DNA from: Amoebophrya sp. A120
Taxonomy: Eukaryota; Protista; Dinoflagellata
Length of the DNA stretch: 64,000 nt
Assembly: GCA_905178155.1 (NCBI GenBank)
Contig: CAJINV010000006.1
Span: forward strand, 2,088,230-2,152,229
Direction of reading: 5' to 3'
Shown: positions 236 through 60,900 of the stretch, piece after piece
Numbering within the stretch: position 1 is the first letter of the stretch
Layout: each line of letters starts with the position of its first letter
The notes under the pieces: model-generated
What the model was told of the DNA's origin: nothing
What the model saw: the letters and a program-made list of their open reading frames with translations, nothing else
Databases searched by the model: none
Translations under genes and position numbers: made by a program

Positions 236-3200
236 TTGCCGGCGCGACAGGAAGAACCACGACCGAGCGACAGCAGCAGCAGCAGAAAGATAACCCCCAC
301 CGTAGATGAAGAAATACAAGTAGAGGCCAGTACCACCACCACGTCAACAATCCCGGTCCGAAATTCTCTGACCGGGGAGACAATTCTGGATTTTCCCAAG
401 CAAAAACTACCTGCCCCGCCCGTCTTTCCGTCTCAACATCTCGGTGCCGCCGTCCTTGCCTCGTCCTCGACCTGCTCTGCAGCAGTAGAGGCTTCTGCTT
501 CTCCTTCTCCGCCGGCTGGAAATAAATTTATTGGCTCTTGCTCTTCGTTGAATTTTTTATTACGAACCGAGTTTTATACCGACGAAAGGGAAAAACAAGG
601 AGCTACACGACGAGTCGGAGAAATAAGCAACAGACAGTGCAGTAGCACTGCACAAACTTCTACGGTTCAAGACTTGATCAACAGTGTTCGGGACCTGAAA
701 TCCATTGCTGCCTCGAGTGGCAAGGAGGTAAAGATTTCAGCGACGTACGAAAGTGGAGGTCCTGCTGCACCACCGCAAAAATCGCCCCCATTAGGTCGTC
801 CCAGCTTCCTGGACCCCCGAGAAAAGGTGGATTTCACCGGAAAAACCAACTACTTCGCAACCATCCTTCCCCAGACCCTGCTTGCGTCACACTTCCAAGA
901 GCTGGCGAATGACGCTTTAGTTGAGGACGCGGACTGCTTCTGGAAGAAGTTTTTCGGCGATGATGATGATGATATTGCAACAGGTAAAAATGTTGTTGCG
1001 GACGAAGATCTTCGTACAAAAACAAAACCAGCACCGGGGAGGTCGTCCTCACAAGGTCCACAACTTGATGCCGGTCTCGGTGGTCCTGCACCTGCTTTTG
1101 TCTCCCCTGCGGAAGTCGAATTCCACAGACAGCACGTGCTTTCCGCACTTCTTGATGAAGGTGCAAATGCGGACGTCGACGAAGCGCAATTGCTCCCACG
1201 AGGACGACACGCGATCACGACGGGGCAGCTGTTGCAGCGATTCATTCAGACGCAAAACTTGATTCTATCAAGTGTAAAAATGTCTGGGTCTGGAAGAATG
1301 CAACCTGTCATGCTAAATCTGAAGCATGCAAAAATCTGTGTTGCATGATTACCAAAAGTCGTCCTGTTTTGACCAAGTCGAGAGGGAGTTTCTCATGCAG
1401 GATAGGCATGAGAAAGATCGCACAGAATCTGTCATGCTAGGTCCTGCATTCCAGACCTTATGGGTCATGGAAAAGCTGCATGACAAGTCGCGCATTCTTC
1501 CAGACCCAGACATTTTTACATTTGATAGATTCCAGATGAAGACGAAAGGGCAGCAGTGAAAACCGCTTTGGAAACAGATACCGGGGTGTTCCACAAAACT
1601 GCTCAACTACAGGACGTGTGCAATATTAAAAGTGATGGCTCACCCTGGTCCCACCTTCAAGATACTACCGGCGCCACGCTGGAAATCTTTGCTAAAGATG
1701 CGTCCTCCGCGAAAATAAAACCGAGCGCAGATGACGAGATTTTTCAATCTGCGATTTGGTCCGAGACCTTACGGCAAGGTGGGGATAGGTACAAAGACTT
1801 GTTGTACTACAATTCTGGTGGTGAAAACAAGATGAAACGGAAGTACCAGCGCGACGCAGAAGACAGTCCTCTCATCCCGCCCACTTTTCTCAACCAACTC
1901 GCGAAATTGTTGCAGCAGGAAATTTTCGACGCTCCTGCTGTCCCGGAGTTTTCCGTGCCGATCTTGCATCAGATACTGGGTGGAGATGATGATGAAGGGT
2001 TGCTGAATTATGTTGGTTTCGAGGATAGTACGACGAGGCCCGCCAACGCTGGTGCTGGACCAGCAGCAGACGCAGGGGGATCTTTCATCCGGAGCAGGCC
2101 GCCAACAGTCAAATGGCGGGTGAAAGAGATGGAGATTCATTCCAACACTGGATTGAATGACATGGAAATGGGCGAGAATGGTAAGATTTCGGCCCGCACA
2201 AACAGGTACAGGACGGACCCGCCAATCACCGTTGAGGATTTCGTATCCTGTGCAAAAGTATCGTACTAGTAGAAACCAGCCATGCTCCGGCTGCCGCCGG
2301 AGCGCAAGGCTGTTGGGCCGGGGCAAGACTGTTTGCCGATCGGACCACAACCCCGCGGGCCTATGCACAACGAAACATATTGCGCCTCGCCAACCCGCAG
2401 GACCACTTGCGCGCTTCCCGCGCCTGTGGGCGCTCTGCGCAGGGAGCAGCTGCAAAGAACACCGGGGGCGAACAGAAGCCGCCCGGCGGGAGAGGGTAGC
2501 GCGAGAGGGTGGCGCGAGAGGGTGCGCGAGAGGGTGGCGCGAGAGGGTGGCGCGAGAGGGTGCGCGAGAGGGTGGCGCGGAAAGGCGCCGAACAAAACAG
2601 CTCCGCGAATGGCCTGCAGTGCCAAATATGGGTAGTGCCATGCGGATTCGCGCCCGCTTCTTTGTGTTTTACCCTCTCGCAGACCTCTCGCAGACCCTCT
2701 TTTTGGCCTCTTTTGGGGGTCCCCGCTAATAATCCGGCTATACTCGCGGGTAGAGGTCGACAGAGGTGGCCGAGAGGTGGCCAAGAGGGTCCGCGAGAGG
2801 TCGCCCCTTATTCGCGCCACCTCTCGCCACCTCTGTCGACCTCTCGCGCCCCCTCTTTTTGACCTCTCTGCACCCTCTGTGCCACTTAGGCGGCGCCTAA
2901 GGGTGGGCCCTTACTGTGGGCCTCATTCGCGCACCCTCTCGCGGACCCTCTCGAACGGGGTCCCGCGCCACCTCTCCACCTCTGTCGACCTCTTTTCTAC
3001 CTCTGTCGACCTCTTTTTTACCTCTCGGCCACCTCTCTGGGACCCTCTGTCTACCTCTTTTTTCGCATTAATATAATGTATAAGTAATCGCAATACAAAT
3101 TTCCTTAGCATTAAAAATAAAGTTTGTAATGCGGATTTGCCTTACGAAAAAAAATTGTAATGCATGACTGCGATGAGTACGAGTAGTACGATACTTTTGC

Positions 3201-5110: not shown

Positions 5111-5879
5111 AGAATACAACTATGTATTGGTGAGTCGAATAGTTGGGAGATTTACAACCCTACCTGATGGACAAAGGAGGTCCTAGTAAAGCTACTTATT
5201 CGCAATTGTATAGCTCCTGCATATTGTTATTTCCTTTTTTTAGCATGGTCATCCATAATGAGATTTTGGTGCAAAAAAAGAAACCCTGCACAACTTCTTC
5301 CCACAATATTTTGCGAAAAGATTTATAATTGCGCCAAAAATTTTGTGCTCATTTTGGTGTTTACCAGTACCGCAACATTCTCTGGCCCCGCATGCAGATA
5401 TGACTCTTTGTCATCCTTTGCAGGCATGTGCCCCACCATCAATCCATATATTAGAATTTCTCTGTTCAAAATAGAGGAAGACGAAGGGCAACTTTGTTTT
5501 CCCCAGAAGTACCCATGTACGGAATCTTCGAGAGACGTCCTTTTTTTGTAAACAACAACAAAGCGAAGGGTGCAACAAGAGGAGATATCCTCTGAGAGAG
5601 TTCTTGTACAAGTCGAGTCAGGAGTGATGTGACGTCTTTATTTTTTTTTTCTTGGTCACATTGAGGAAGTTCAAGTAGATCTTCTTCTTTGATCTTTACT
5701 GATTCTCATCGTCCGAGGGGACCCGTCGCACAGAAGTTCGTTGATCTTTACTCCGCAGCGAAATAAACAGAGACTCGACGATATGCCGAGGGAGCCATGA
5801 GGTGAACAAAAATGCGTGTAGCGGCCCCCGCGACATCAACATCGGCCTCCACACGACCACCACGCCGGGCGGGGGTGCA

Positions 5880-6030
5880 CATGCAGTGCAAAAGTATCGT
5901 ACTCGTATAAATGCATTACGATTACAAATTTCCTCAGCATGAGAAATAAAATTTGTAATGCTGGTTTACCTTGAGAAAAACATTTGTAATGCATGATTGC
6001 AATACGAGTACGATACTTTTGCACAGGATA
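5880..6030. mobile_element. Introner family B (upstream of the tentative ATG)
   Basis: TIR; DR gtgca/gtgca. Confidence 0.9.
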
Positions 6031-6044
6031 GTGCAAATGCAATC

Positions 6045-14292: not shown

Positions 14293-14427
14293 CAGAAACC
14301 TAGAATTCTTTCCTCCAACGTCTACGTCTGCGTCGGCGCGCATGTTGACCACGTTGACCACGACAGAAGCGATTGGAAATTCACTTTAAAAAAAACAGCT
14401 CTGTCGAACCAAAATTTCCGGCAAACC

Positions 14428-19000: not shown

Positions 19001-22000
19001 CCTCTCGTCCGCGCAGCAAAAACTGGAGCTCTTTTGCTGTTCATGCAAAACAGATCTTATTTAGGATCCAAAGATGGCATAACAAGTTGCATCCTTCCAG
19101 ACCCAGACACGTTTGCAGTTGATATAGCCTGTACAAGGACAAAATTTTCGAGCGCAACACGGAGAAACGACAATTGTTGAGTAAGAAGGTCTACTACTAC
19201 TTCCGCAAGTGGGTACAGGAGGGCGAGAAGGCGGAGAGTGGGGATCTGGGGAAAAAATTCCACTACTGCACGGACGACCGGGCGATTGCGCATATCAAAT
19301 GCAAATTAATATGTCTGGGGCTGGAGGAGTGGAATTTGTGATGCTAACTTTGGAGTCTAAAAAATCAAAAATTTGTGTAGCATGAAGAGCAAGAGGACTC
19401 CAGTTGTTGCTATGCAGAGAGGGAATTTCTCATGCGGGAGAGGCATCAAGAAACCCGTGAAATAAAACCTGTGATGCAGCTTTGGCATGCACCACAAACG
19501 TGATGGGTCATGCAAAATGTGCATGACAAACGTTCCAGTCTTCCAGACCCAGACATATGTGCAGTTGATAGTGCATCTGGAGAACCAATTACAGAAGGAG
19601 AACTTGAACATTTTCGACGTGCGAGGCGATATGCAAAGAAAAAAATTAAAGTTTTACAAAAATTACACACAGTGATGCAAAACGTGCAAGACAGATGACC
19701 TGTGCCATGCCCAAAATGCTTGCGGGTCTCGTTTCGTGTGTGTTTTGCACTATGATCTCTGCATTACAAGTTTTCTTCGTCATGCGAGGCAACGTTGTAA
19801 TGCTGAATTCACTACAAATCCAATGTGTTGTGTAACTGTAACACTTTTTTTTCTTGGATAGGCGAGGACCCGAAATTAGTGGAGAAAATGCTCTTTCTGC
19901 TGATAAAGACTGCAGAAGCCCCCCTCACCGTCATTTGTATTGCATGAGCAGCAGTACAAGTGTCAGCGAGAATGCAGGTTTTGCATGACAAATCTGAACA
20001 GGAGTGTAGTGCTATTTCGGCTCCTGCCAGAACTTGTCATGCAAAAAATTGCAAGAGGCACAGGGTGGATTTGGTGCTTCGCATTACAAATGAGCGGGAC
20101 GAGGGGGAGTTGTGCCCTCTCATAGCTGACCACCCACCCACAGAACCAGGGTGACGCGTACTTGCGGCTGCTGTTGAAAATGCCGGAAAAGTTCGGATAT
20201 CAAATGCAAAAATGTCTGGGTCTGGAAGAGGCGGGACTTGTCATGCACATTTTGCATGACCCGTGAGGTCTGTGACGCAGGTCCTAGCATCACAGATCTT
20301 TTGAGGCCTTCTCGATGCTTATCACGCATGAGAAATGCCCTCTCCGCGTGCCAAGAACTGTCTCCTCTTGCTCCTCATGCAACACAGATATTTTTAGAAT
20401 CCGCAGACAGAATTACAACTTGCATTCATCTTCCAGACCCAGACACTTTTACATTTGATATCGGAACCTCGCGGTATTTGGTGCAGGAGGTGCTGAAAAA
20501 TTTCTACTTGCTTTTGTGGGAAAAAAACCGGAGACTGGAGCGGCAGAACAGCATCGCAAAGCAGCCCATGCGGATCAATGACGTGAGTCTGGTGGAACTC
20601 GACGTGATTCGGGACGACGAAGATCTTGACAGTGACGCCGATTTTTTTTACAACAGCAACTCCGGAGGTGCAACCTCCTCAACATCCACCCTCCGTGCCT
20701 TCATCGATCTCGAGACTTCCCAAGGAACGAAAAGCATCGAAGCAAGTTTGATGGAGAGCCGGCGAGAAGAAGATTTTTCAGTAGCTTCTGCAACTGGCAA
20801 CTGCCCGGAAGATCTCTCCGCGGAAGCGGATATTTTAGCTACGCCGATTTTTGTCGGGTTGAGTGATCCAGACGTCGATTATGGTTTGGCGGTATCAAGT
20901 GTAAAAATGTCTGGGTCTGGAAGAATGCAACTTGTGATGCTGCATTTGGAGTCCAGAAAAATCTGTATTGCATGAGTACCAAAAGGAATGTAATTTTTGC
21001 TACGCGGATAGGGCATTTGTCATGCGGAATAGGCACCAGGAAGCTCTCAAAAAATCTGTGATGCTAGGGCATGCATCACAGACATCAGGGCTCATGCAAA
21101 ACGTGCATGACAAGTGTCCGAATCTTCCAGACCCAGACATTTTTACAGTTGATAAGCGGATGGAAGTTCGGGAGGAGGTGCGGATGGAAAATTTTCCTCC
21201 TCCAGTACCTCTCCAGCGATGCTGACCCTAGCAGAGACGAAACGCAGGCGGGAAGATCTTGGTGACTCAGAGTCTGGACGAACATCAAGCGACACAAGTG
21301 CGGGGAGTAATATTAGGGAAACCGCTGATTTGGAAACCGGCACTGGCATTCTTGCAACAACTACAGCATCTAGTTCCCACGGTTTGCGCGAGTTTGGGAG
21401 GAAGGCCGAGAGGAGGAGGAACAAGCAATTTCAACACGAAACAGGCCGTCCAGGAGGCTCGACGGAACTAGTACCGGGTGCTGGAGCGAACATTTCGTCT
21501 TCTCGCCGGGGAATGAAGCACGCGAGCAGAAATCACAGTGTGACGCAAGAACGGCAGCTTCTGACATCACGGAATTCATCCCGACAGCCTCTTCTCGGAC
21601 GGCGCGGTATCAAATGTAAAAATGTCTGGGTCTGGAAGGATTCATGTTTGTCATGCTCGTCTGGCATAACTCTTAAATCTGTCATGCACATTACCCAAGA
21701 GCTCCGCTTTTCTGTGATGCAGAAGCGCAGTTTGTCATGCAGAATAGGCAACACCTAGGACCTCAGAAACTTTTCATGCTGAGCCAACATTTGTAGCCTC
21801 ATCATGAGACGCCGCCCAGCATCACAAGTTTCCAGACTTCCACCCAGACACTTTTACATTTCATACGCGGCGTGACTGCACAATTTCAATCCCAACAGCA
21901 ACAGCAGCCTGCGACGAACTTTATCTACGGCTACAATCCGTATAATCCACCGGGGCAGCTGGTGGGAATGACAGCAGTCTTACCTCCTGGCGCGCCTGCG

Positions 22001-25978: not shown

Positions 25979-28900
25979 ATGACCGTGCTCTCGGCCGCTG
26001 GGCCCGCGAAAGAACCACCCGGCGTGATGAACCCGGCTTCGCAGGGTGGTGGTGCAACTGCCGCGGGGACCTCCAAACCGCCTGGTGGTACAGGGACTGG
26101 CGCAAGTGTCGAGGAAATCGAACAAACATTGTCGGAGATCTTCGACTTTTACGCAACACGGCCGCATTCCAAAAGTGCTTTGCTCTTTACATTTGTCATG
26201 CGTGCTACGACGTGGTCGAGAAGAGCATGGATTAGGATTTGTCCTTCATAATATTGGTAGCGCAGCAGAATGCATAGACTGCAACTTGTCGTGCTGCTAG
26301 GTCTGCGACAGTGACGAGGAAGATCATGCACATGATAATTTTTCAACACATCGTCCGCATTAACAAACCACTGCACCTTCAGGTACCGGCTCCTCTGTCC
26401 TAAAGTCTGCCAAATTCATGAAGATGTGTCTGGACGCCGACCTGGTGGACGACATGCAAAGCACCCAGGCTTCCGACCCACACGCGCGGTCGAAGCTGTT
26501 GACGTCTGCACGGTATCCTGTGCAAAAGTGTCGTACTCGTATTTTTGCAGTCAAGCTCATTACAAATCTTTTTCTCGAGGTAAATCACCGTATACAAATT
26601 TCATTTCTCATGCTGAGAAAATTTGTAATGCAATTCATACTAGTACGATATTACTTTTGCAATGCATACGCGGGTCGACTTGATTTTCAAAAAGTTGTGC
26701 GGGAACCGAACGACCATGACTTTTGAGCAGTTCATGAACGCTTGCGTCCAAATCGCGCTCACCAAATACCCGCACGTCAGCAAAGCCTACGAAGCCTTGT
26801 CAATTCTGTACGAGGATATGCATTGCAAACCAAGTACTCGTGCTAAAGATTGCAGACAAAGACATGCATTAGTGATATTATAAAATGTAAATCAGCATGA
26901 CAAATTCCAGTTGTAATGCTGAGATACAATTGCAATTCCTGCTAGGTCGACGAGTATACTTTATTTGCACTCTATAGAGGAGCACTTTTCGAAATTTCTC
27001 AACCCGCACGCGGAGCTCCTTGGCGTGTTCCTAGGCGGGCAACAGGACCACGCGGGCATTGGGGAGGAGTCTTTTTTCGAAGCCATCGCACCGGTCAAGG
27101 AGGCCGTGCTGACGCTCTATCAAGGGTATAATTTCATTTTCACGTTTTTCTGAAACCACTCAACGCATCTACTTTCTTACTTTCTATCTCTAATTCTACG
27201 TATGCAGCTTGCACCGATTCGTTTGGATGATATTTTGTTGCATGACAGTCGCCCTTTGGTTTTGCAGGTGCTGTTGAAGCAGAAATTCATTCTCATGCGG
27301 GCTCTACAACAACTACATGAAAGCAGGATTACGATTAGCAACGCCAATCTCGAATCAAAGGTACTTCTGCCAGGAGCTTAATCCGCATTTTCAGCAGCAA
27401 ACGGCAAGCCTCTATGCTGCGCAAAAGCATCGTACGAGTATGAATCGCATGACAAATTTCCTCAGCATGAGAAAGAAAATTTGTAGTGCGGATTTAACCT
27501 AAGAAAGAAATTTGTAATGCATGAATGCGATTAGTACGAGCACGATACTTTTGCGCAGGATAGCCTCGAATCGCAGTCGATGAAGGCCTTTCTCGCATGT
27601 CTGCACGACTTCGAGATCGCTCCGAATTTGGTTCCGAAACCGATCTGCTTATCGGTTTTCCGGGAGGTACTACTAGATGGCAAAACAGTTTTCATCTACG
27701 GAGGCTGTGGAGTTTGAGTTTGTCATGCATGCATGAACTTCGAGGGGAAGATGTGGTGCAATAGGGGTTTCATACAGTAGACTTGAAGTTCTAGGGGTTT
27801 CATACAGTAGACTTGGAATTTGTCATGCGGAAAGATATTAAAGCCCAAATCATACTTAATTGACCACGACAGGTCCTGAAAGCGAAAATTCCGGAAGAGT
27901 TTTTCGCTCAGTTTTTGAAGACCTCGGAGCTCACGGAGGAAGAACTGCAAAGCAAACCGATTTTGACACCTGAGGAGCTCTCTCTGAAGGGCCGGCTGTT
28001 CACCATCGGACACTTTGTGATTGGACTCTATTTGGTCGGAAAAAAACTCCGAAACGACCCGGCTGGGCTTTTGCAGCAACCGTCTCCGGCAGTGGTGATA
28101 ACCGAATTGCTGGAGAGGATGGACGTGTCAACGCCAGGAAAAATCATCTTCACTGCGGAGCGTATTGATCAATGTCGATGTCGTTTAGTTTTCTTGTGCA
28201 TGATTGATCGCATTTGCTAGTTATTGTTTGCGTGGCCCGCATGATGACATCAGCCTGCCAGGGCATATAACTGAAATAATCCTACAACTACATGACAAAC
28301 TGGTGATCTCCCCTCATCTCTCATTTCAGGCGCCCGGTCCCTCCCTCTCTCCAGTGCTTTCAACGCGCCAGGGAAAGTTCCGTTTTCGTTCTTCCCCGAA
28401 CCCAGGCCGCAATCAACATCTTCTCATAGTACCGGACAAACCGGCGCACCAGCTTCGTCATCTTCATCTAGTCAACAAAACTACAAAAAACCGACATCCC
28501 AGCACCTGCAACAAATCGGCGGCAGTTCGTCTTCCAGTAGCAGCGCGACGAGGCCTATCCAGGAAAAAACACCCATCCCCATCCATGTTTTGCATGACAA
28601 GCACTAGATTTTATGCCTGTTTTGCATGACGAATTGGATGGGGATGGGTGTTTTTTTGTGGATAAGGGCCAGGGCCGGGAGCACGCGAAGCCCAACCACG
28701 GGGATCATGAAGAATGGTTTGTCTAACAACTTCGCTAACCGGATTAATAATTCTGGGTCTTCCGCCGGGAGAAGAAATTTTTCGAAATTTCTCATTCCGG
28801 ACGACGTCGGGGTTTTCCTCCAACAGCAACTAAAACTGAAAGAAGACGACGATGGATCGGTTCTTTCCGGCGAGGAGATTGACCACCTGCTCCAGCAGCT

Positions 28901-31900
28901 CTTCCTTTACTACAGCTCGCTCGGAGACCCTCTGAACCGAAATAGCATGAGCTCCATGAAGTTTAACCGGTTCCTCCGCGACGCGGGTTTACTCCCTAGG
29001 GATTGCAAATATTTCTGGGTCTGGATAAGTGGAACTTGTAATGCTGTCCGCGGATTCTAAGAATATCTGTGTTGCATAAGCAGCAAGAGGAGTCAGCTCT
29101 TGGCACGCGGAAAGGGCATTTCTCATGCGTAATTAGCATCAAGAAGCTCTCAAAAAATCTGTGATGCTAGCAACAGCATCACAGACCTCACGGGTCATGC
29201 AAAATGCGCATGACAAACCCCGACTCTTCCAGACCTAGACATTTTTGCAATCCATACTCCCCGCGGAATTGCCGAAGGGCGCTCTGTCTTTTGACCAGAA
29301 ATCGCTGCAGGTAAAATCAAAGCTGTACAGCAACTACGCGCAATTACACGACGCCGGGGACTACCACGGGAGCGGAAAATGCACCAGGACCGCGAATCTG
29401 GAACGGTTGGTGGAAAACAGCGATTTCGTGTTGAATCAAGTGGATGTGGATTTGATCTTTCTGCAGGCAACAAATTACGAGAGGAAAAAACAGCATTCCT
29501 CCGGGCACCAAGTACGACACTTGCTGACCGTAAAAAGCTGGCGCAGGGCGGTCGCGGACATTGCAGTGAGACGGTACCTGGAATTGTTCGGCGTGGGGGT
29601 GGAACGGCTCATGCAGGAACAGCCGGAGGCGGTGATATTTGCAAGTATACTTTTTTACACAATCTTTGACTACTTTCGAGCTTTGCTGGACAATCTCGTC
29701 GGAGTGAACTAGCTACAACACAACTCTCCTGCTATTGACTTTGAATGAAACAAAAACTTAATAGCCGCCATCACCTCCTTTGCGGAGGCCATTCTGCAGC
29801 CGCTTTGCAACGCACTAGATTTTCAGTCCCACGTCGACGTTTCGAACTTTGCGGTGGAGATGGGTAGAAAGGAGATGGTGGAGTTATTCCATTCGCCAAA
29901 TATCAGTGACGGAATTTCCAAAATTTTCGCCTATTACGTATGCATTGCAAAACTCTAGTATCTTGGTCGTTATCGCAATACAAATACTAGCGCTTAGCAT
30001 GACAACATCAAATGGAATCTGTCATGCAAATTTTTTAGGTCGGGAAGGCGATTTGTCGTGCATGGTTGCGATAATTTATTACAACTACAACTACGGTGCA
30101 CAGCTTTTGCAATGGATACCATGCTGACCAAACCTACACAACATCTGCGGCGAACGCAAACTCCGCAATGATGAACTTGAATTCCCTTCGCTGGACTGTC
30201 AACAGCTTTCTAAAGTATAAAATTCCAAGTTGGATAATTTTGATTTTTTAGTTCAGTGAATTTCATCAATTTTTTCCCATGTAAGTTTCTCTTTCTTCTC
30301 GATTGAGTGATCTGCTGGTACCAAACTGTCATGCAATAGATCCTAATGTTGTACTGTACAGTACTAAAAATATGAGCAGAAGACAACTTCTCAAAAGCAA
30401 AAGTACACCCATACAATCATGTACCACTTTTTGAAATAGGTTTTGTGCCGACTTTGAGATCCAGGAGGAGCTATCGCACCTTCCTATCCATAAACAAACA
30501 CCCATCCCCATCCAATTTGTCATGCAAAATATGCGTCAGAGCCATTGTCTGCCATGCAAAAACTTGATGGGGATGGTTTTTTTTTGTGGATACTTCCCCT
30601 CCAGAGGATCTTCCAGGATTGCGCACAGGTGGAATTTATGCATTGGAAACATGTAGTGTTTGGGTCTGGATCATTGCAAGAGCTGCAAGACTTGGAATGC
30701 CGGAACGCATGTTGCGCAACGGTGCTGCTCGTCTGTGCTGTGCTGCAATGAAAATGCGGCTTTGCATGCACAGATCGCAGTAGATAGCCGCTTTTAGAAA
30801 AGCAAAATTGTCATGCGCTTTCTGCGTACGGGCTCGTCAGATGCACAACACAGTACGGTGACAACTAAGTACTTTGCATTTGCTCCAGAATTACGCCAGA
30901 TATGTTTGCAATGCATAGAACTGGTGGAAAAACGAACAGCGAATACTCTTCCGACTTCCAAAGCGGAAAAGGCGTCGGGGGACCAGTTAACGCGATTGGG
31001 GTTTCAACTCTCCTTGGTTCTGCTTGCCGTCAAGCTCAACAAAGCCGACTCCTCTCTACCGTCCCTGCAAGACCAGGTGATCGCGCTGTTACACAAACTC
31101 AACCACGCTCAGGGCGGGATGAAGGTATACTCCTAAAATCATACTTGGGTAGTTATTTGGGCAGTTTGTGTTGCATGAATCTGGAGGTTTAGCATTTCGA
31201 TTTCCACTAAAGCTAACAGTCCGTAATTCGCATGACACCACCTTGGGATATTCTTATTTACGTCGAGGTGCATGAACTAAAAATCAGGACCGTCCCTCCG
31301 TCGCCAGCTTAACCCGCAAAGGGATGCTGTTCACCAACTTACCGCCGCTTATGCAAAGCAAATATGTCTGGGTCTGGAAGGTTGAAACTTGCCATGCTAA
31401 CTCTGAATCATGCAAAAATCTGTGTTGCATGAGTGCCAACACCTGCCTCCTTGTGAGCCAGTTCGTTGGGCGGGAGTTTCTCATGCAGGATAGGCACGAC
31501 AGAGACATCGCAGAGTCTGTCATGCTAGGTTCGCATTCCAGGCCTCATTGGTCATGGGAAACCTGCATGAGAAGTTGACAGGCCTCCAGACCCGCCAGAC
31601 ATATTTGCATTTGATACCGCTCGGGACGTTACAACTGGATAATTTCCGGAGGAGTTTTGATTCCACTTCCGTGGAGAATGTGAATTGGAATTCTGTGAAA
31701 TATATGGATTGCAAATATGCCTCGGTCTGGAAGAGTGGAACTTGTAATGCTGTCTGCGGATTCTTAAGATATCTGTGTTGTATGAGCAGCAAGAGGAGTC
31801 AGCTTTTGGCACGCGGAGAGGGCATTTTTTCTCATGGGTCATTAGCATCAAGCAACTCTCAAAAAATCTGTGATGCTAGCACCAGCATCACACACCTCAC

Positions 31901-44184: not shown

Positions 44185-47100
44185 ATGGGTTGCAATCAGT
44201 CCGCGACCGCTTCCCCTGACGGTCCCCAGGCCGCGTCCCCCGGCTCCAACAAAACCAGTCCGACCGGAGAGAACAACCAGAGCCCCAATTCCAGTCGTGG
44301 CCCAAACAGCCCGGACTCCACCAGAGCAGGCAGTTCGTACCGTCGGAAAGTGAATGCGAGTAGTACAACAGGCGAACTCCAACTACAACAGCAGAACAAA
44401 AGTCCACGAAGCGCCGCAAACACACAAAATGCCCAGTCCCCACAGAACCGTTCGCAACAGCTGAAAGAGCGAAGAAATTTGGTGTTGCACCAAGCAACAT
44501 TAAACAACCCCGTCGCCCCGCCACCCGCCCCTCCCACCCCGCCAAACACAGGGCTGCCGGCTTTCTCACAAATCAACAAAACCAGTCCGAATAGAGGGCC
44601 GGCGGCAGGAGGTGGCGCAGTTTCCGGGTTTAACACAACAAGCACTACTGGCGGCGCAGCTACCAGCTCCTCAAATTTTCCCAACACATCCCCGACCTCA
44701 GCTGGTGCGCCCGCTACGCCGCAGTATAATGTGAACTACATGGTGAATACGCCGCCTATCTCGCCAACGAGTGCGGCGAGCAGAAGAACGCCAACGGGAG
44801 GCGGAGGCCCAAGCGGACCAGCCTCTGGCGGACTGCTGCTTGGTGGCAGGATATCTCAAGAAAAAAGTGTTACAGTTACACACTGTGTTGCAGGCTAAGC
44901 AAGACAGACAATCTTTGTCATGCCGGATATGCATAGGAGCCTCGTTTCATATGTGTTTTCTCGTAGGATCTCTGCATTACAAGTCTTCTCTTTCATGCAA
45001 AGAAATTTGTGTTGCTGCCTGAATTCACTACAAATGTGTAACTGTAACACTTTCTTCGTGGGATACAGGACTTCCAACAGCATCCCAAGTCTAAACCCCA
45101 ACGCACATCAGCAACAGCAAGCGCATCAACAGCATAATTTGTTCGGGCAGCAACAAGGAGTTGCAGCTCCTGGTGGTCAACAAATCTTAAATCAGCAAAA
45201 TAACAACTATAACTCTTCCCTCAGCGGCACGGCGAATTTCGGTCTTCTACAGCAGTACCTCGAGCCGTTGACAGAGTTGGAATTTCACGACTCGGATCCA
45301 GAAGAGCTGAACGGGCACTTCAGCTCACCCAGCAACTCTCCCACACAGAAGTTGAACGAACGAAGGGCGGGGTTGGGCGGCGTGTCAACGATCAACATCT
45401 CCGTCCCGCCGACACCGACGAGCGTCAGTCACATGGGTATACGCATTGCAAATGTATCGAAATCGTACGTGTGCGTCGAGTATATCTGCATGACAAACTT
45501 TTTCAAGAAAAAATGTTCAGTTGGTCATGCATATTCTGGTGGGAAAACAGATCTGTCGTGCAAGATTGCGATGAGTAAGAATACTTTTGCAATGCATAGA
45601 AGAGTAGCAGCAGGCCGACGGTGAATTTTGGCCCGGCGACGCCGACCATGGGTGGCGGAAACAATCCCACCTCGTTATCCTGAGGAAAAGCGTCCCCACC
45701 CCAAAGTTGTCATGCAAATCTGCATGCTCAAAATGTTTCTCATGCGGAGCACCATGACAAGCATGATTTGATGTTAGTCGTGTTTTCTCATTTGTAATGC
45801 TCCAATCAGCATAATAGACTAGATCTGTGATCATGCCGCTGAACAAGCTAAACAGGATTTTTACACTACGAGGCCAAATTTGTCATGCGCAGCAACCAAA
45901 TCTGGCTGATTTGTCTAGCAGATTTCCCATCTTGACTTATACGGCGGGGACGTTTTTGCTCAGGATACTCGTCCTCTACCGCACCTACGCCGACCCACGT
46001 ATGAAAGCCTCAGAATGGAAATCCTCAAAGTGGAAATAATTTGTGATGCATGAAATGCAAGGCAAAAAAGACTGCATTGCGGAGGACACAATGGAGGCCG
46101 ACTATTGTCCTGCTAGGGGTGAAGAATTGGGCTGCTGATTAGCACGACAGAAGGGCACCCCTTTGCCTAACTAGCATGACAGACACGTTTTGAGTACCCG
46201 GGAAATTTGTCATGCGCCGGCTACAAATGGCACTTCAACTGGAGTCGATTTTTTGCATTACAGATTATTTCCACTTTGAGGATTTCCAACCTGAGGCTTT
46301 CATACCACGCCTCCTCGAGCAGCACCGGCGGCGGCTTTTATCTGCAATCCCCGAAACACAGACGGATCTCTGACAGCATCAACAGAAACGTGCCGCTGTT
46401 CTGCTACAAGATTGCGCATAAGAAGGAGCTATCAACTGCAAAAATGTCTGGGTCTGGAAGATTGCCAGGCTTGTCATGCATATTCTGCATGACCCATGAT
46501 GTCTGTGATGCATGACCTAGCATAAGCATCGCAGATTTCTTTTAGGGGGTTTCCTTATGCCTAACCCGCATGAGAAATGCCCTCTCCGTGTGGGCTCCTC
46601 TTGCTGGTCACGCAATACAGATTCTTTTGGAATCCAGAGACAGCATCACAAGTTTTTACCACCTTCCAGACCCAGACACTTTTGCATTTGATAGGAGCAG
46701 AACCAACCATCCGGGACTACAGGTACTTCTAGGGGCAACAGAAGGATAAGGAAATTGATCGCGGAAAACATTGATGTGAAGCTGGGGAACATGATCGGGA
46801 AAGGCTCCCACGGCACGGTCTACGAGGCAAGGCGGGAGGATACGGGGCAGATCATTGCCTGCAAAATCACCCCGGTCGACCATCCAGAAGCGCTGAAGGC
46901 GATGATATGCATTGCAAAAGATTCGTACTAAGTACAAATCACATTACAAATTAGCTCAGCATGACAAAGGGAATTTGTAATGCTGTATGAGCTCAGTAAA
47001 AAGATTTGTCATGCATATCTGGAATTAGTACGAGTGCGATTCTTTTGCAATGCATAGATGAAAAAGGAAGTGGACTTGCTACAGCGGTTGAACCACCTAT

Positions 47101-51940: not shown

Positions 51941-54900
51941 ATGGAAGTCCGTCCGAAGGAGCGGATGAACATTTCCGCCGCGTACCACATGGCGATGACG
52001 CACGCCGAAGAAGGCATGCAGCCCATGGCGGTGCCGCTCCCCCAGAACTTCAGCTCGTTCGAAGAGGCGGTAGAAAAGGCGGAGACCTTCCAATATCCTG
52101 AGCAAAAACGTCCCCAACCCATAGTCAAGTTGGTAAATCTGCAACACAAATCGCCCAGCTTTGGAAGTTGTGCATGACAAGTTTCCGTCTGTAGTATAGT
52201 GTTGCTTAGCAAGGAAAGCCGCATGAGAAAGCCAATCTCTCATCATATTTACAGCATTACAAATGCCAAATCACGATTTGAAACGCCTCTCGTCATGGGA
52301 ATGCGCATTACAAATGTTCCTGTCGTTGCGCATTTGCATTACAGCCTTGGGGTGGGGACGTTTTTGCTGTGGATATCCAAGACGCGGTGATCTGGCAGTA
52401 CCACCAAGCGAAGAAGCGAAAGGTCATCGCCAAGGGCGTGCCGCCGCGGCAGACCGGGCTGGTAATAAACGGCATCGGGCAGGAAAAAATCGAGGACATC
52501 TCAATGGAAAGCTACGCCCTGACCTCCATTTGCGCAAAGCCGAGATCAAACGGCGCCGCTGACGCACCCTCCGAATTTAGAAAAATGGCACAGGACATGC
52601 GGGCGGGGAGATTGAGAACGAGGAAAAGGAAGTTTCCCAGCAGAAAATTCCGTATTGTTATTGATTGTTTCTACGTACAATTTTTGTTACAGCGGCATTT
52701 TGGGTGGTTTGCGTTTGGTTGTTTGCATGACAAACCGCTCTTCCTTGATTGTCGTGTCACAACCAGAAACTACTTTGTGATGCATATACTCAATAGTTCT
52801 TTCATTATCGTTATCGTTATCAAGCAGCGCGTCAAATAATGATAGAATCCAAAAGCAAAATAAATCAAAAACATCACAGAGGACAAGGACATTCTAGACG
52901 GCAACATCTCCTCCGACTCCGAGGGCCACCCGGGGTACGGCTCTGACAAGGAAAAGGAACGGGCCCGTGGTGACTACATTGCGCAACAAAAAGCCCAGCA
53001 GGGCTTAAACAAGGCGTATGTGAGGCCGAATCGACACAGCAGCATGTCCTCCCGAGACGGGTCGGATTCCGGTTTTCTGTCCGTCGGCGCGAGTCCCATG
53101 AGCTACCTGCAAACCCCGGACCGGACGCCGGAGAGTGAATTTGGGAGAACGCCCGGCACGAATATGGATTTTTATCCCACGAAAAAACTGTTTCACTGTG
53201 GTGCTTTTGCAAGATCTGCATCACAAGTTTGTATACACATGTCACGGAAATAAATTTGCCATGCGCGCTTTCCAAGGGAAAACAGGCTTCAAAATCCAGA
53301 ATGTCTTGCAAGTGTAGCAAGACAAACACTTTGGTGCTTCGTTCTCTGCATCACAAGTTCACAGGGAAACAGTTTATTTTCCTTGCGATAATTGTACCGG
53401 GGGAAATAGCAGCATGATGGCGTTGACAAACGACGCACACAGCGACGCGGGCGACAGCGTGGATAACCAGAGCTTGGCGCTGAGTATTTCTTATTGCAAT
53501 CATGCATTACAAATCTTTTTCTTGAGGTAGATCAGCATTAGAAATTTCAGTTCTCATGCTGAGGAAATTTGTAATGCATTTATTATACACATGAAACTAT
53601 CAGGCCAACTCGCGGCGGGTGATGGGAAAGTAGCCTACAACAAGAGAAAATTCGCCGCGCAAAAAGCCGAGCGCGTATGCATCACAAAAGTATCGTACTA
53701 GTAGAAATCGCATTACAAGTTCGGTCAGCATGACAAGAGGAATCTGTCATGCTAATTTACCTACACAACTAGATTTATAATGCATACCTACACAACTAGA
53801 TGATGATGATGATGATGATGATGATGCATAAACGCGATTAGTACGAGCGCGATAGTTTTGTAATGCATAACGGGAAGCCGCGAATAAAATCTTGGCGGCC
53901 CAGAAGAACGGGTTTGGCAAACAGCAGTTTTTGATTGACCACAGAACACCGACGAGACTGACGGAAATCCTGGAGCATAGTACTAAATGTGGTTTTCATA
54001 ATTGCTATTGCTCTGTAAAAAATGCTGGCGTGGTAATAAGGCAATAGGAGTGACGAGAACTTGTGAAGTAGATGTTGATCATGCACAGCATGCCAGCGCT
54101 GTTGTTCTTGTTGTATTTTTGCATGACACCGAAAATAAGAAATTCCGACACTTCAAGAATAGAGAACAAATAAATCGATTTTGTTCATCATTTAATCAAA
54201 CCCACTTTATCAACAACAAACAGACAAGAGAATCGACAAGCACCCCCTCCCTGTGATTACCATCATCCTCCCGCCCCGCGCTTCCTCCCTCATCAACATT
54301 TGCAACTGCATGCCGTTTATCAACGGCAAATATGTCAGTCTGGGTCTCGAAGCTTGTGATGCTGAAGTATGCATAAGTCAGCTGCTTTCAAGTGCAGCCA
54401 AGCATGACAAGTTTAGTTGACACCGTCTGATTCGTAGCACGCATGACAAACTGCTTGGTCGCATCTCAAAAAAGTGGCGCCTTTGCTGGCTGTATGCAAC
54501 ACAGATTTTTCAGGAATGCAAGACATGCAACACAGATTCCACTTTTCCAGACCCAGACATGTTTGCAACTGCATGCCGTTCTTCGAAGAGCACAAGTGGA
54601 CCCCGTTAACCCGACAGGAGAAGATGTTTTTTAACAGCTACCGTATCAACTGCAAATATATCTGGGTCTGGAAGAGTGTAAACTTGTCATGCAGGTTTTC
54701 TATGACCCACGAGGTCTGGAATGCGGGACCTAGCATGACAGACTCTGTGAGGTCTCTGCCATGCCTATCCTGCATGAGAAACTCCCTCCCAACGTGCTCG
54801 AAAGTGGACAGCTCTTGGCACTCATGCAACACAGACTTTTGTAAGATTCAGATTTAGCATGACAAGTTGCACCCTTCCAGACCCAGACATTTTTGCATTT

Positions 54901-57900
54901 GATATACCGCACGCCGAAACACTTCGAAAAGGCGCTGTTCAACAAAAAACACAAATTCCGGATCCAATTTGTGGACAACGCGAGTCAAATCGAGAACTGG
55001 CTCTCCGTATCAAATGTAAAAATGTCTGGGTCTGGGAACTTGTGATGCTGGGTAGCGTCTCATGATGAGGCTACAAATGCTGGCTCAGCATGAAAAGTTT
55101 CTGAGCTCCTAGGTGTTGCCTATTCTGCATGACAAACTGCGCTTCTGCATCACAGAAAAGCGCAGCTTTTGGGTAACGTGCATGCCAGATTTCAGAGTCA
55201 TGCCAGGCAAGCATGACAAACATGAATTCTTCCAGACCCAGACATTTTTACAGGTGATACTCCGTTTGTGCAGTGTTTCTGGACCCGAAGATGGAAAACG
55301 ACTGGCAGCTGAACGAGTACCCCTTCGCGAAGCACGTCCACTTGTTCACGGCGGTTAGAGGGTTTTTCGTAAACCATGAGAAAGCGCCGGTGAAGAGCAC
55401 GATCTGCGCGAACTGCGACCTGAAGGAGTTAACCTTGCCGCAATCCGTCCGCTATCCTGTGCAACAGTATCGTACTCGTACCAATGCAAGTTTAGCATTA
55501 CAAATCTTGTTTCCATGGCAAATCTGCATTACAAATTTTATTTCTCATGCTGACGAAGTTTGTCATGCATTTATACGAGTACGATACTTTTGCACAGGAT
55601 ATCCGCCACAAGGACGACCAAGTATTGGCGAACTTCTGGCTGGAAATGGAGCGATTTCTGCAAACGATATGAAAGCCTCCGGTTGGAAATCCTCAAAGTG
55701 GAAATAATTTGCAATGCAAAAAACCACTCCAGTTGAAGCGCCACTTCTAGGCGGCGCATGACAAATTCCCCGGGCATCTCAAAGTATGTCTGTCATGCGG
55801 GTTAACGCAAAGGGGTGGTCTTCTCTCGTGCTAATCAGCATTCCAAGTCTGAACCCGTAGAAGGACAATAGGCGGCCTCCATTGCGTCCCCTGCAATACA
55901 GTCTTTTTTGCGTCGCATTTCATGCATCACAAATTATTTCCACCTTGAGGATTTCCATTCTGAGGCTTTCATAAACGAGAAGTCACATGGCGTACATGCA
56001 GCCGAATTTGAAGTTGATTGACGCGGCAAGCGTGAAGCGGGTGGTGCCCAAACCCGACTGGACGGAGCAGCAGAAGAAGGAGTTTGAAGAGCGGGTCGAA
56101 TCCAACAAACAGCTGCAACTGACCATCACGCACAACAATTTGGAAAACTCCGGGGCGGGCGTGATGGAGGTGGATAAGTCCAGGCCGCTGATTACCGAAA
56201 CGATTGACAAAAATTTACTCATCGTCGACAAGGAATCCCTAGTATCCTGTGCAAAAGTATCTGATACTCGTATTGCAATCATGCATTACAAATTTTTTTC
56301 TCAAGGTAAATCTGCATTACAAATTTCACTTCTCATGCTGAGGGAGTTTGTGATGCATTTATAGATACGAGTGCGATACTTTTGCAGTTCATACCTGAAC
56401 CCCCGGTTCTACCGACCTGATTTCGACCTGCAGCGAAAGCGAATGGGGAAACCAACCCTGGCGGAGGAGCAGCAGGCCCTACCGATCGCTCTGAAGCAAA
56501 AGATCGAGAAGGGAGAGAAGTTGACGCAAAAAGAGTTGAACGATTTGAACAAGGAGGGAAAAGTATTCCGAGGAAAAACGTCCCCACCTATCCAGAGTCA
56601 TCAACTTGGGAAGTCTGCTAGACAAATCAACAAGCTTTGCTTGCTGCGCATGACAAATCTAACGAAGGCTCGCCGTAATGTAGTCCGATGTTTAGCTTCT
56701 AGCTCAGAAGCTGCATCACAGATCTAGCCTATCATGCTGATTCGAGCATCGCAATAAATCATCTCAAAACACGACTAGAATAAAACTATGCTTCTCAGCA
56801 TGGGGCTCCGCATGACAAATATTTTCAGCATGCAGATTTGCATGACAAGTACGAGGTGGGGACGTTTTTGCACAGGATAGAAAGTGCCGGATTTCGATGC
56901 GGAGGATGAAAACGGCTTCGACTGGGCGGCACAGCCGATTGCCGCACACACCTTGGACATCGGCGCCGGGCGGCAGATATCAATTGCAACTATGTTGTCC
57001 GGGTCTGGATGAACACAGCTCAGGTGTTTGTCAAGCTGTCTCTGCTTGACTCTGAAGGTCTGGCATGCAAGCCCTAGCACGAACACAGGTTTTTGCAAGG
57101 CCTGCCAATGCGTGATCCGCATGACAAACTTCCGCTTTGTTCGGTGACAAGAAATAACGGGATAGTTTTCTTGCTGTTTATGCATGACAGATGATTTTCC
57201 TGTGATCTAAAATGCGCATCACAAGTCTGCATGTCTACTCCAGACCCAGACATATTTGCGATGCATAGGAGGTCAAGATGCACATCAACGACGAGGAGGA
57301 CAAGACGAAATTTGACAAACAGATCATGAAGCTGATCGAAGACGTATTATTTGGCTTCTGATTTTTTTTCGATAGTTTCAATTTGTCAAACGACCCTTGT
57401 TTGATTGTATTTTCATGCTATTAATTTTTGAACAACTCCCATATACAACACAACATCATAAACAGTGCATCCTCAAGAAGAAGAAGGAGGACAACAGACC
57501 GGAGTTTATCGGAAAGAAAACCAAATAGCTTGGCACCTCCCAATAGCAGCTCCTTTCCTTCTTCATCTTCGTCTTGCATTTGTTCAAACTTGTAAAATTG
57601 TCATGCACCTTATGCAATGTAAATTTCCTGTACATGTACAGAATGCATGACAGATTTCGCTAACTTGCTGTGTCCAACTTGTCATGCTACACTAGGATTG
57701 AAGGCAAGTTTTGTCATGGAGAGACTGCATTTGTACATGTACAGGAAATTTACTGTGGATACACCTAGTAATTCTATATTCATCTCCGGTGCTTTTTTGT
57801 ACCAGTACAACCGTGTGACTGAACGCAGATGTTGAAAAAAAGAGAACAAGGCTCTTCTAGGAACAAGCCCTGGGAGGTGATGATTTTTTCCCCTGTACAC

Positions 57901-60900
57901 GCTTTCGGAGGTGGAACGACAAAATAGGCCGGGAAGAACTCCACAAGGAGAACTTCGTGAAGTGGGTGAACGACAACTTTGACTGTGACAAGGCCTATAC
58001 GGCAGGGAAATTGCACGACGTTGGCTTTTATGCATTGCAGAAGTAACGTCCTAGTATAAATTGCATTACAAATTTTGGCAAGAAGAAAAGTGGAATTTGT
58101 AATGCTGTTTTAACTTAGGAGAGAGATTTATCATGCATATTTACAATTAGTACAAGCACGATACTTTTGCACAGCATAGCTTTGGCCACGCACTAAAAAC
58201 TGACATCGGCTACTACTACCACAAGGACATCAAGCTGGACGCGTTTAAGAGTAAGAAATACGCCAGACACCGCTGTCGAATGAACTATCCTGAGTAAAAA
58301 CGTCCGCCCCAAAGTCAAGATGGGGATTTTGCAACAGAAATCGAGAAGTTTTGGAATTCGGATTCACGCATCACAAGCTGCAGTCCCGATAGTGTAGTGC
58401 AGGCTATAGCAAGGACAAACGCACCACAGATCCATCTACTTAGCCTGGTTACAGCATTGCAAATGCCAAAACACGACTAGAAATGCCTCTCATGGAGATG
58501 CGCATTGCAAATCGATTCCTGTCATTGCGAGTCTGCATGACAACTCTGGGGTGGGGACGTTTTTACAAATGATATTCACACCGAAGTAATGCTCGTGGAG
58601 TGGTACGACCGCCCCGGCGCAAAAATGATCAGCTACATCACAGTATCGAATGTAAAAATGTCTGGGTCTGGAAGAATGCAAGATTTGTGATGCAGGTTTT
58701 CCATGACCCATGAGGTCTGGAATGCGAGACCCAGCATGACAGATTTTTTGAGGTCTCTACCATGCCCTTCCTGCATGAGAAACTCCCTCTCAACTTGGTC
58801 AAAAGCGGCCAGCTTTTGGTACTCACGCAACACAGATTTTTGCATCATTCAGATTTAGCATGACAAGTTCTAACCTTGTTCCAGACCCAGACACTTTTAC
58901 ATTTGATACACAGCAGAAGACAAGGCCAAGCAGGAACGCGACGCAGAGTATGCTGCAGCGGAGAAGGCGCAAAAGCGAGCGGCCAGGGACGAGAAAAGAA
59001 AGGAGCATATCGTAAGGAAAAATCCCCCCTCCCCATATCAAAAAGGCAGCCTTTTGAAAATTTGTAATGCTGATTTGTGGTCACAAATTAGGTCAGTGTT
59101 GCAAGAGAGCAAGGCCAGAGCGTGCGCCGCCTTACGCAGGCGGTTTGTAATGATGCGCCAACAGGGCAGAGCAGACGTCTGCCATGCTGAGTGCCTATCT
59201 CTAGCCAGCCCCTTCCAGGCACTGTAAGCATCTGCCTGCAGTCCTCCTCTGGAAGACAAAGCTGATTTGTGCACACGAATCCCGCAACACAGATTGCCAT
59301 TTTGATATGGGGGAGGATTTCTCAGTTCGATAAAACAGGAGAAAAAAAACGGTGGCGATTGGGACAACTACAAGAAAAACGATGAATGGAAACAGTCTTC
59401 CAGCTGGCTATGCATTGCAAAAGTATCGTACTCGTAGTAATCCTAATCGCAATCATGCATTACAAATCTCCATCCCAAGGTAAAACAGCATGACAAATTC
59501 CATTTGTCATGCTGAGCTAATTTGTTTTGCAGTTACTACTAGGGCGATACTTTTGCAGTTCATACTGACAACAAGGAAACAACACTTACAACTCGTCCAG
59601 CTGGAATAACAGCAGTGGAAACAACTACAATTCAGGAAACGACTGGAACCAGGGAGGTGGTGCTGGTTCTTGGGGTGCTGGCGACTGGAACAACAAAACG
59701 ACTTCCGGGTACAACAATAATTCCTCAAGTTGGAACAATGACTACGGTAAAACTAGCTGGAAGAATGACGATAAAAAAGACAACTGGGACAACAGTTACA
59801 ACAAGTACGACAAAACTTCTTCCTACGAAAATGCTGACAAGAAGGCAGCGTCCTACAACGCGTTCAACGCCCCTGCCGCACCAGCGGGAGAGCCGAGTGA
59901 TAAAAAGAATTCCTTCGAGGTTGAAGAGTCTGTTGTCCCCCGACCTGGTCGCGGCGGAAGCAAAGAAAAAGAGAGACAAAAGTCCCCAGAGCGAGGACGG
60001 GGAGGCAGTAAGGAGAAGGAGCGCGGTACTACGTCTGCTGCTAGCAGTTCTCAAAACAAGTTTCTCTTCTACGAAGGTAGAAATGAGAACACCCGTCGAG
60101 AGGACGACGTGGAGCGGTACCATCGATCGAGTAAGTACAGGGAAGATTATCATGATAAAGATGACTACAACTACCGGGGTGGCAGCAAGCACAAAGACTA
60201 CAACCAGCCATCTCGGTACAGCCGCAGCCGGGGGCGGGATAGAGGAGCCAGGAGGTCAAAGGAAAAGGAGGACGAGAGAGACCGGTACGACCGCCGCGAC
60301 CGTAGTCGATCCAAAGAAGTGAATAAAGAGGAAAACAACGGCCGGGGGAGGAGTCGGTATGGAAACAGACGGGACGGGAGTAAGGACAAGGATATCAAAG
60401 ACAAAGGGGATATCAAGAAAGAAACAACTACCTCCCGCGACGCAAAATCGAAAGCAAAGGACAATATCACCGCCAAGGAAGAGAAGAAACCCCCACCTCC
60501 TCCGCCTGCTAAGAAGAAAGCTGCAGCTGCTGCGTCCTCTTCCTCAAGTTACAAACCCGGTGGCGGCGTGGAGGAATATTTGGCGGCGAAAGCGAAAAAG
60601 GAGGCTGAAGAGGCGGCGGCGGCAAGTGCGAGGGAGGTGAAATCTAGTCCGGTTATTGACTACACGAAGGTTAGAGCGGCGGATTTGTTGGCGGATGGAG
60701 ACAGGTATGTTTATATTGCAATCATGCATTTACAAATCCTTTTCCTAACGTGAATCCGCATTACAAATTTCATTTCTCACGCTGAGGAAATCGAAATTTG
60801 TAATGCATTTATGCGAGTGCGATACTTTTGCAGTGGATACGTTTTTCATCGTCATGCCACCTGAACTTGTCATGCAAGTTGAACAAATCAAAATGAAAAT

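Follow-up and report, generated by a model that had tools for sequence, protein, structure and literature searches.

An internal motif common to introner families and present in part of the GT-AG introns of Amoebophrya sp. A120: a putative protein site on double-stranded DNA

Introduction

Introners of the dinoflagellate Amoebophrya sp. A120 have been described as elements whose inverted repeat starts with TAT and, after about seven looser bases, reaches a run of three or more A, and which are flanked by direct repeats of 3–5 nt and leave non-canonical junctions (PMC7789003). Introner mobility and splicing are stated there as open questions, and no U1 small nuclear RNA (snRNA) is reported in either strain (Farhat et al. 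2021, PMC7789003). A terminal inverted repeat (TIR) family of A120 has integrase-like open reading frames (ORFs) without Ginger termini (Gozashti et al. 2025, PMC12130899). Here we analyse a window, the whole stretch of 64,000 nucleotides at positions 2,088,230 to 2,152,229 of contig CAJINV010000006.1 (assembly GCA_905178155.1), in which the genes are co-oriented on the plus strand and interrupted by 87 short elements, each running from TAT to ATA between two 5-bp direct repeats. A preliminary description of the window had noticed a short motif, GCAT[G/C/T]ACAA, inside these elements and in conventional introns, and had proposed a shared protein-binding site that would explain how many families use one removal system.

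Arrays of end sites are known from the transposons Ac/Ds, En/Spm, Tn7 and Mu, and transposons of the Ginger/integrase type have TGT-type ends and an integrase-like enzyme. In the zebrafish element Harbinger3_DR, a 9-bp motif is bound by a Myb-like protein, and the target duplication of PIF/Harbinger elements is 3 bp (PMC9710019). In animals, SOS splicing is spliceosome-independent and needs AKAP17A, CAAP1 and RTCB (PMC12779559).

The elements of the window fit the known A120-type introners (PMC7789003), as judged from their sequences. TAT ends with an A-run, short direct repeats and non-canonical removal are all found, and the family lengths of 106, 149, 208, 252–260, 278 and 305 bp among 22 of the 118 Amoebophrya rows in PMC12130899 match those of the elements here. 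They differ in that the repeat is consistently 5 bp, as opposed to the published 3–5. All the traits of miniature inverted-repeat transposable elements, namely a TIR, a target duplication, short length, lack of coding sequence and many copies, are present. While the elements themselves are already known, the internal motif, its spacing and its presence in canonical introns appear to be new: no report of a shared internal motif, of a spacing rule or of the motif in canonical introns was found in the literature, of which text and part of the supplements were covered and figures were not.

Distribution of the motif

GCAT[G/C/T]ACAA occurs 195 times on the two strands of the window (108 times with G, 51 with T and 36 with C), where 2.4 hits of the three forms together are expected under a first-order Markov model and 15.9 under a fourth-order one. 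The preliminary description depended on the motif exceeding background and on its decaying more slowly than its neighbours; the former holds, the excess over the first-order background being about 80-fold, and a chance origin was rejected. The free fifth position accepts G, T and C but hardly ever A: the form with A, GCATAACAA, occurs twice in the window, and A stands at this base 17 times versus 1312 in the sister-assembly loci described below. A-tracts adjoin the motif.

Introners hold 183 of the hits in 19.4 kb, 95 on the plus and 88 on the minus strand, and 80 of the 87 elements have an exact site, while all 87 have an internal one if a single mismatch is allowed. Nine GT-AG introns confirmed by RNA contain 7 hits in 1.75 kb versus 0.12 expected from shuffles, and the predicted canonical intron pieces contain 2 in 0.9 kb. 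Exon or other DNA, 23.9 kb in all, has 1 hit and the 15.5 kb between genes have 2, the labels of these two classes having been assigned by the analyst from ORF breaks; the 2.5 kb of nested GC-rich inserts have none. These counts bear out that the motif is enriched in introns (183 and 9 hits), scarce in exons and intergenic DNA (1 and 2) and present in both orientations inside elements. A promoter element was rejected because the motif is depleted between genes, and a general repeat mark was rejected because the GC-rich inserts lack it. The single examples given earlier were right in part. In the element at 1266–1527, GCATGACAA at 1478 is exact and only the variant CTGTCATGC stands at 1305; of the canonical introns cited, those with sites at 26193, 27720 and 52725 are RNA-confirmed GT-AG introns with exact sites, whereas the one placed at 28271 has no exact site and contains only ACATGACAA at 28290.

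The sister-assembly sample consists of 144 loci obtained from metagenome contigs by a pattern scan, with 734,661 bases reduced to 610,719 by removing overlaps and pieces shorter than 500 bp. Because the pattern used to choose the loci was that of family 0 and contained one motif, family 0 is over-represented, whereas the other families and the canonical introns are unselected. Window and loci together yielded 495 elements, 407 of them with a perfect 5-bp duplication; the search demanded TAT and 4/5 repeat matches, not the A-run, and gave 12 candidates in the reversed-sequence control. Base counts at the ends of the 495 elements define an inverted repeat composed of TAT, about seven looser bases and an A-run at positions 11–15. 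From position 4 on, the TIR can often be read as the motif variant GCATTGCAA; its positions 4–8 vary freely between both ends, with a private change rate of 0.134, above that of the spacer.

Grouping produced 16 multi-copy families and 23 singletons, with exact sites in 16/16 families and 18/23 singletons. All 619 full-length copies have an internal site at no more than one mismatch, a number to be read in the light of profile detection, which favours site-bearing copies. The elements average 2 to 6 internal sites, which may point either way, and their lengths cluster near 107, 150, 210, 260, 280 and 305–325 bp, in steps of roughly 50 bp. Both orientations relative to the gene are found in 11 of 12 families. 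When motifs and ends are masked, the 66 consensus pairs reach a z of 4.3 at most, and the unmasked pairs 2–10, 4–6, 5–7, 5–11 and 7–11 have z values of 22–35, so that some introner families are, on sequence similarity, evidently kin. Hence the view that the families are otherwise unrelated mostly stands, with the exception of these five pairs and of the shared TAT…ATA ends, A-run and 5-bp duplication, and the view that all families carry the motif stands for the 16 multi-copy TIR families and fails for the GC-rich inserts nested in them. The summed depth of run X5 ranges from hundreds to more than 100,000 over elements versus about 25 over unique DNA. No Rfam match was found in the window, and the family-0 end pattern has no match in viral contigs.

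Geometry of the sites

The spacing of same-direction sites peaks at 30–33 bp (14 families or singletons at 32), and that of opposite sites at 15–17, 34 and 46–50 bp. Of 12 family consensuses, 11 contain a same-direction pair at 30–33 bp, versus a null mean of 2.7 and a value that 0 of 5000 permutations reach, and 10 contain opposite pairs within the peaks (null 5.3, P 0.003), with the reservation that the spacing windows were picked after the histogram had been viewed and that kin families are not independent. The first site read inward as TTGTNATGC starts 32–33 (5 ends), 40–44 (9) or 53–55 (3) bp from the element end, and the first site read as GCAT starts 35–37 (2 ends) or 43–48 (5) bp from it; these steps are near one helical turn. 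The sites thus have the form of a subterminal array, being short, repeated, conserved and placed at set distances from the ends.

Conservation and decay of the sites

Identity to the family consensus is 0.90 in the core of the motif, 0.76 at the free base, 0.80 in the spacer and 0.88 at the ends. Private substitutions relative to the five nearest copies (601 copies) amount to 0.047 in the core, 0.096 at the free base and 0.101 in the spacer, and in young copies to 0.0385 in the core and 0.088 in the spacer. The decay of the target duplication (382 perfect versus 114 decayed) provides a rough insertion clock, with the caveat that older lineages could already differ before insertion; the comparison is limited to copies with intact ends, and the class with three or fewer repeat matches is confounded by boundary errors. 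Copies with decayed duplications show a gain of 0.033 in the spacer, 0.0195 in the core and 0.028 at TIR positions 9–30, so the core/spacer gain ratio is 0.59 (95% interval 0.33–0.93, P 0.016). In agreement with the preliminary description, therefore, the motif does not decay as fast as its neighbours, either in private substitutions or in the increment of old copies. The motif also persists where TIRs have eroded, as had been claimed, since the family-1 core at 53484–53603 retains its sites after TIR loss. Locus L063 of the sister assembly is orthologous to window positions 60025–63648 with about 86% identity, and the unique part of a single orthologous intron keeps its sites intact between the two.

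Sites in canonical introns and removal from RNA

The 458 kb of sequence that belong to no family hit or TIR pair contain 64 exact sites versus 11.3 expected. At the strict positions 1, 2 and 5 these orphan sites have 87 mismatches versus 115.6, and hence no excess. Among same-direction pairs of orphan sites, 11 of 25 are spaced by 30–34 bp versus 1.2 expected, which provides an independent test of the spacing rule outside the families; several of these pairs lie within what are evidently GT-AG introns, and their spacers are unrelated. The sister-assembly introns are predictions of a gene model that recovered 7 of the 9 confirmed window introns exactly. Of 360 predicted introns, 89 remained after window and nested rows, weak donors, lengths outside 60–320 and short flanks had been removed, and 86 after the further removal of 3 with family hits. 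These 86 family-free GT-AG introns include 14 with an exact site (0.7 expected) and 23 with a tolerated one (3.5 expected), and the sites are distributed as 18 and 13 over the two strands.

Strict mismatches in the predicted introns number 6 versus a background of 4.6, while a relic diverged by 30% predicts 26 (P 4e-6) and one diverged by 20% predicts 17 (P 0.002); only a relic diverged by 10% is compatible with the count (P 0.13). Family profiles still detect copies at 60–67% identity. Because the strict mismatches are too few for neutral relics, the sites in single-copy GT-AG introns without TIRs are likely to be maintained. Two introns of this kind in the window are single-copy in run X5. 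A GTAT start is found in 17 of 23 motif-bearing versus 23 of 63 other predicted introns (P 0.003), a contrast that false predictions may inflate. This excess and the canonical ends of 53484–53603 suggest that motif-bearing canonical introns descend from introners.

The contigs of X1–X3 are presumed to derive from RNA, and the RNA-confirmed joints and introns are those among the joints listed. All 13 element joints among those listed remove the element together with 5 bases exactly, and none of the 13 appears in X5 where it covers them. The only intron starts that fit all 13 joints are TAT itself or the base preceding it, and this includes joints whose repeat retains just 2/5 matches; 29939–30118 and 53676–53869 are examples of elements with RNA joints. 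A start one base before TAT fits the published A120 5′ dinucleotides GT, CT, AT and TT (PMC7789003), and N-TAT resembles the common canonical donor GTAT. The uniform start of these joints makes it likely that the cut positions are set by the element ends and not by the motif. The idea that the motif explains one removal system for all families is not supported by these joints, nor by the 63 of the 86 predicted canonical introns that lack a tolerated site.

Recognition of DNA or RNA

Introns with sites only in the GCAUGACAA sense (28556–28664 and 56564–56879) and introns with sites only in the UUGUCAUGC sense (26175–26382 and 27667–27872) are all spliced. In family 0, 55 of 206 copies have matching free bases in the terminal pair versus 91 expected if these bases were independent, and co-variation of the free bases was absent in the 5 families tested, the four other families being near expectation. 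A simple RNA stem was rejected on these two grounds. A spliceosomal RNA signal would be expected on one strand, at a fixed distance from a splice site and in nearly every intron, but the sites occur on both strands, lie 0–148 nt from the 3′ end and are missing from most of the predicted introns; a branch-point signal was rejected because of the two strands and the variable distance to the 3′ splice site. Strand symmetry, a spacing of about three helical turns and the lack of pairing co-variation together favour double-stranded DNA recognition, which would be the simplest reading of the putative protein site, and RNA structure may contribute beside it. The proposal of a shared protein-binding site is thus supported by the enrichment, the slow decay of the core and a pattern of the double-stranded DNA type, while the data argue against a signal recognised on single-stranded RNA or by a complementary snRNA.

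Proposed mechanism and alternatives

These observations lead to the hypothesis, to which we give an even chance, that GCAT[G/C/T]ACAA is the double-stranded DNA site of one sequence-specific protein that helps to mobilise all TAT…ATA families, and that the host keeps this site as an intron mark once the element ends decay. The protein itself, its role in mobilisation and its role in the host are putative. The spacings correspond to about 3, 1.5 and 4.5 turns of the helix and would let bound proteins occupy corresponding sides of it, like a transposon end complex. One trans-acting transposase could act on any DNA that has suitable ends and sites, so that many families would use one kit, and the 5-bp duplication presumably points to a transposase that is probably integrase-like. 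The same protein would have a host role at introns, most likely in aiding co-transcriptional recognition where U1 snRNA was not found, and this role would account for the retention of sites after insertion and in some GT-AG introns without TIRs. As for the cut, N-TAT would be read as a GTAT donor and a TIR hairpin would position the acceptor. A more specific version, which we hold only tentatively, is that a domesticated transposon end-binding factor on helically phased motif pairs marks introns on the DNA and recruits or paces splicing, replacing the missing U1 snRNA. If true, such DNA-level marking would explain the tolerance of tens of thousands of non-canonical introners.

Several observations weigh against a protein with this double role. 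The siteless intron 29645–29764 is spliced and, together with the 63 siteless predictions, shows that the motif is not required for splicing; only part of the conventional introns carry sites. The sites in canonical introns stand at no fixed distance from either splice site, and the introns of the sister assembly are predictions. The post-insertion signal is modest (P 0.12 outside family 0 and 0.15 in copies with a mutated TAT end), and in the intron 60705–60977 and its counterpart in L063, small insertions in one or the other lineage interrupt 3 of the 4 sites that derive from family 1. A period of 10.5 bp appears in only one of five classes of the periodogram, same-direction spacings of 18 and 49 bp are out of line with helical phasing, and the spacing windows were chosen with the data in view. 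In predicted folds 0.78 of the motif bases and 0.59 of the spacer bases are paired, and 0.36 of the motif bases pair among themselves. A scan of 259 of the 350 long ORFs (at least 190 aa) yielded no transposase or integrase family, and no transposase is reported for A120 (Farhat et al. 2021, PMC7789003).

One alternative is that the motif is a transposon subterminal site only, selected while the element is mobile and decaying after insertion, the occurrences in GT-AG introns being relics with acquired canonical ends. The first sites are indeed phased to the element ends, the core does decay after insertion (by 0.0195), the family-1 core at 53484–53603 has GT-AG ends, the GTAT excess, inflated or not by false predictions, is what G plus an element end would give, the orthologous intron contains broken sites, and Harbinger3_DR offers a precedent (PMC9710019). 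We nevertheless regard this alternative as unlikely, since the orphan sites are as clean as those of intact elements despite the loss of TIR, duplication and homology, the 30–34 bp spacing survives among them, non-self hits occur in only 3 of the 86 orphan introns even though profiles reach down to 60–67% identity, and the interval of the increment ratio narrowly excludes 1. The converse, a purely host intron mark on DNA with a transposase that reads the ends only and siteless elements purged for poor splicing, would agree with the similar constraint in young copies and in the later increment, with the lack of any siteless copy and with the finding that the motif-free GC-rich inserts are seen only nested in motif-bearing elements (4/4). 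Such a mark is quite unlikely, because end phasing is found in introners and absent in canonical introns, because the majority of predicted canonical introns are siteless and because the resemblance of the TIR to the motif, read as GCATTGCAA at position 4, ties the motif to an end-binding protein.

Action at the RNA level, through stems between opposite copies, a site for an RNA-binding protein or snRNA-like pairing, is very improbable. Opposite copies are complementary, the predicted folds pair the motif more than the spacer, and 33 and 16 nt also suit turns of the A-form; yet the free bases do not co-vary in 5 families, introns with a single orientation of either kind are spliced, strand bias is absent, sites lie anywhere between 0 and 148 nt from the 3′ splice site, and simple pairing leaves the avoidance of A at the free base in the sister assembly unexplained. 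The least probable alternative, to which we assign hardly any weight, is that the sites help to package chromatin or to modify DNA (by bending, by nucleoprotein spacing or as a methyltransferase target) and are unrelated to mobilisation or splicing. The clustering of element lengths near 107, 150, 210, 260 and 305–325 bp and the A-tracts beside the motif would suit it, but the near absence of the motif from exons and intergenic DNA, the strict base identity at most positions and the phasing to element ends do not.

If the motif is a protein site with roles in mobilisation and in the host, the common motif and its spacing rule could serve as bait for isolating the protein. One motif across families speaks for a single mobilisation system common to hundreds of families, and its retention in GT-AG introns without TIRs suggests that a transposon signal has turned into a host signal. 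The question bears on the maturation of introner-derived introns into ordinary ones and on sequence-based marking of introns on DNA.

Individual elements and neighbouring features

The elements and introns referred to above are collected in Table 1. The two family-1 cores at 53484–53603 and 60705–60977, which lack one or both TIRs, are apparent conversion intermediates.

Table 1. Introners and GT-AG introns of the window, with their motif sites
Feature	Positions	Strand	Description
Family-0 introner	1266..1527		262 bp, TAT…ATA, 5-bp duplication GATTC; exact site 1478, variant 1305
Family-0 introner	20893..21154		3 exact sites; RNA-type contigs lack the element and one 5-bp repeat (joint 20888 to 21156)
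GT-AG intron without TIR	26175..26382	+	Exact site 26193, variant 26286
GT-AG intron	27126..27360	+	One-mismatch sites 27240, 27290
GT-AG intron	27667..27872	+	Exact sites 27720, 27820
GT-AG intron	28162..28329	+	One-mismatch site 28290 only
Family-8 introner	28556..28664		109 bp; two same-orientation sites 32 bp apart (GCAUGACAA sense on RNA); spliced
GT-AG intron, siteless but spliced	29645..29764	+	Counter-example
GT-AG intron	30215..30439	+	Central one-mismatch site 30326
Family-8 copy, opposite orientation	30485..30592		Only UUGUCAUGC on RNA; removal inferred from open frames
Family-6 introner	46000..46304		305 bp; first site 42 bp from end
Single-copy GT-AG intron	52652..52879	+	Exact sites 52725, 52775; run X5 depth about 23–31
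Family-1 core, TIRs lost, now GT-AG	53484..53603	+	4 sites; introner-to-canonical intermediate
Single-copy GT-AG intron	53980..54223	+	One-mismatch site 54121
Family-1 introner	55453..55601		149 bp; same-direction sites 55495, 55526 (31 bp apart)
Family-3 introner	56564..56879		5 sites, single orientation; skipped between RNA contig pieces 56398–56559 and 56881–56974
Predicted GT-AG intron	60705..60977	+	Eroded family-1 copy, then unique part with sites 60849, 60867; orthologous to L063

The GC-rich inserts are about 800–880 bp long, contain no motif and end in a GC hairpin, and we take them to be Helitron-like. They lie at 2270–3070, 35846–36684 and 48360–49238 of the window and at 776–1572 of locus L017, and all four copies are nested in introners, two each of families 1 and 6, within a few bases of a motif. 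The composite element at 48320–49509 has a length of 1190 bp, which matches the published TIR families of 1180–1190 bp (PMC12130899). A protein kinase gene at 44185–50480 (PF00069 in the last exon) is split by 13 introners. The stretches between genes at about 23800–25400, 33000–34600, 42200–43900 and 62500–64000 are GC-rich (up to 68% GC per 2 kb) and nearly motif-free, and the ORFs scanned in them have no Pfam match.

No cognate autonomous element was found among 4 long TAT…ATA candidates in the less than 1 Mb examined. In the sister assembly, locus L050 has an 865-bp perfect inverted duplication (4570–5434 and 14921–15785, about 10 kb apart) over long ORFs with no Pfam match, which may be a gene duplication or an assembly artefact, and locus L014 contains a C-5 cytosine DNA methyltransferase gene (PF00145) at 2422–5877.

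Comparison with known systems

The TAT ends of the elements differ from the TGT-type ends of Ginger, and an integrase-like enzyme was not found in the 259 of 350 ORFs scanned. With the subterminal arrays of elements such as Harbinger3_DR (PMC9710019) they share several short sites near the ends, in both orientations and conserved above the spacer. A 5-bp duplication in place of the 3 bp of PIF/Harbinger sets them apart from that superfamily, and the sites described here, in contrast to subterminal arrays, fill the whole element, are common to at least 16 families and recur in GT-AG introns of the host. As in SOS splicing (PMC12779559), TIR elements leave the mRNA and the cut is defined by their ends rather than by GT-AG; the ends also define the cut in euglenids and Fritillaria, whose non-canonical introns are guided by TIRs (PMC11282704). 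In those systems, as far as the sources consulted describe them, the terminal repeats pair and no internal, strand-symmetric and helically spaced motif is mentioned, whereas the elements of Amoebophrya sp. A120 combine such a motif with removal that, in 13 of the 13 joints listed, is precise to the element and 5 bases.

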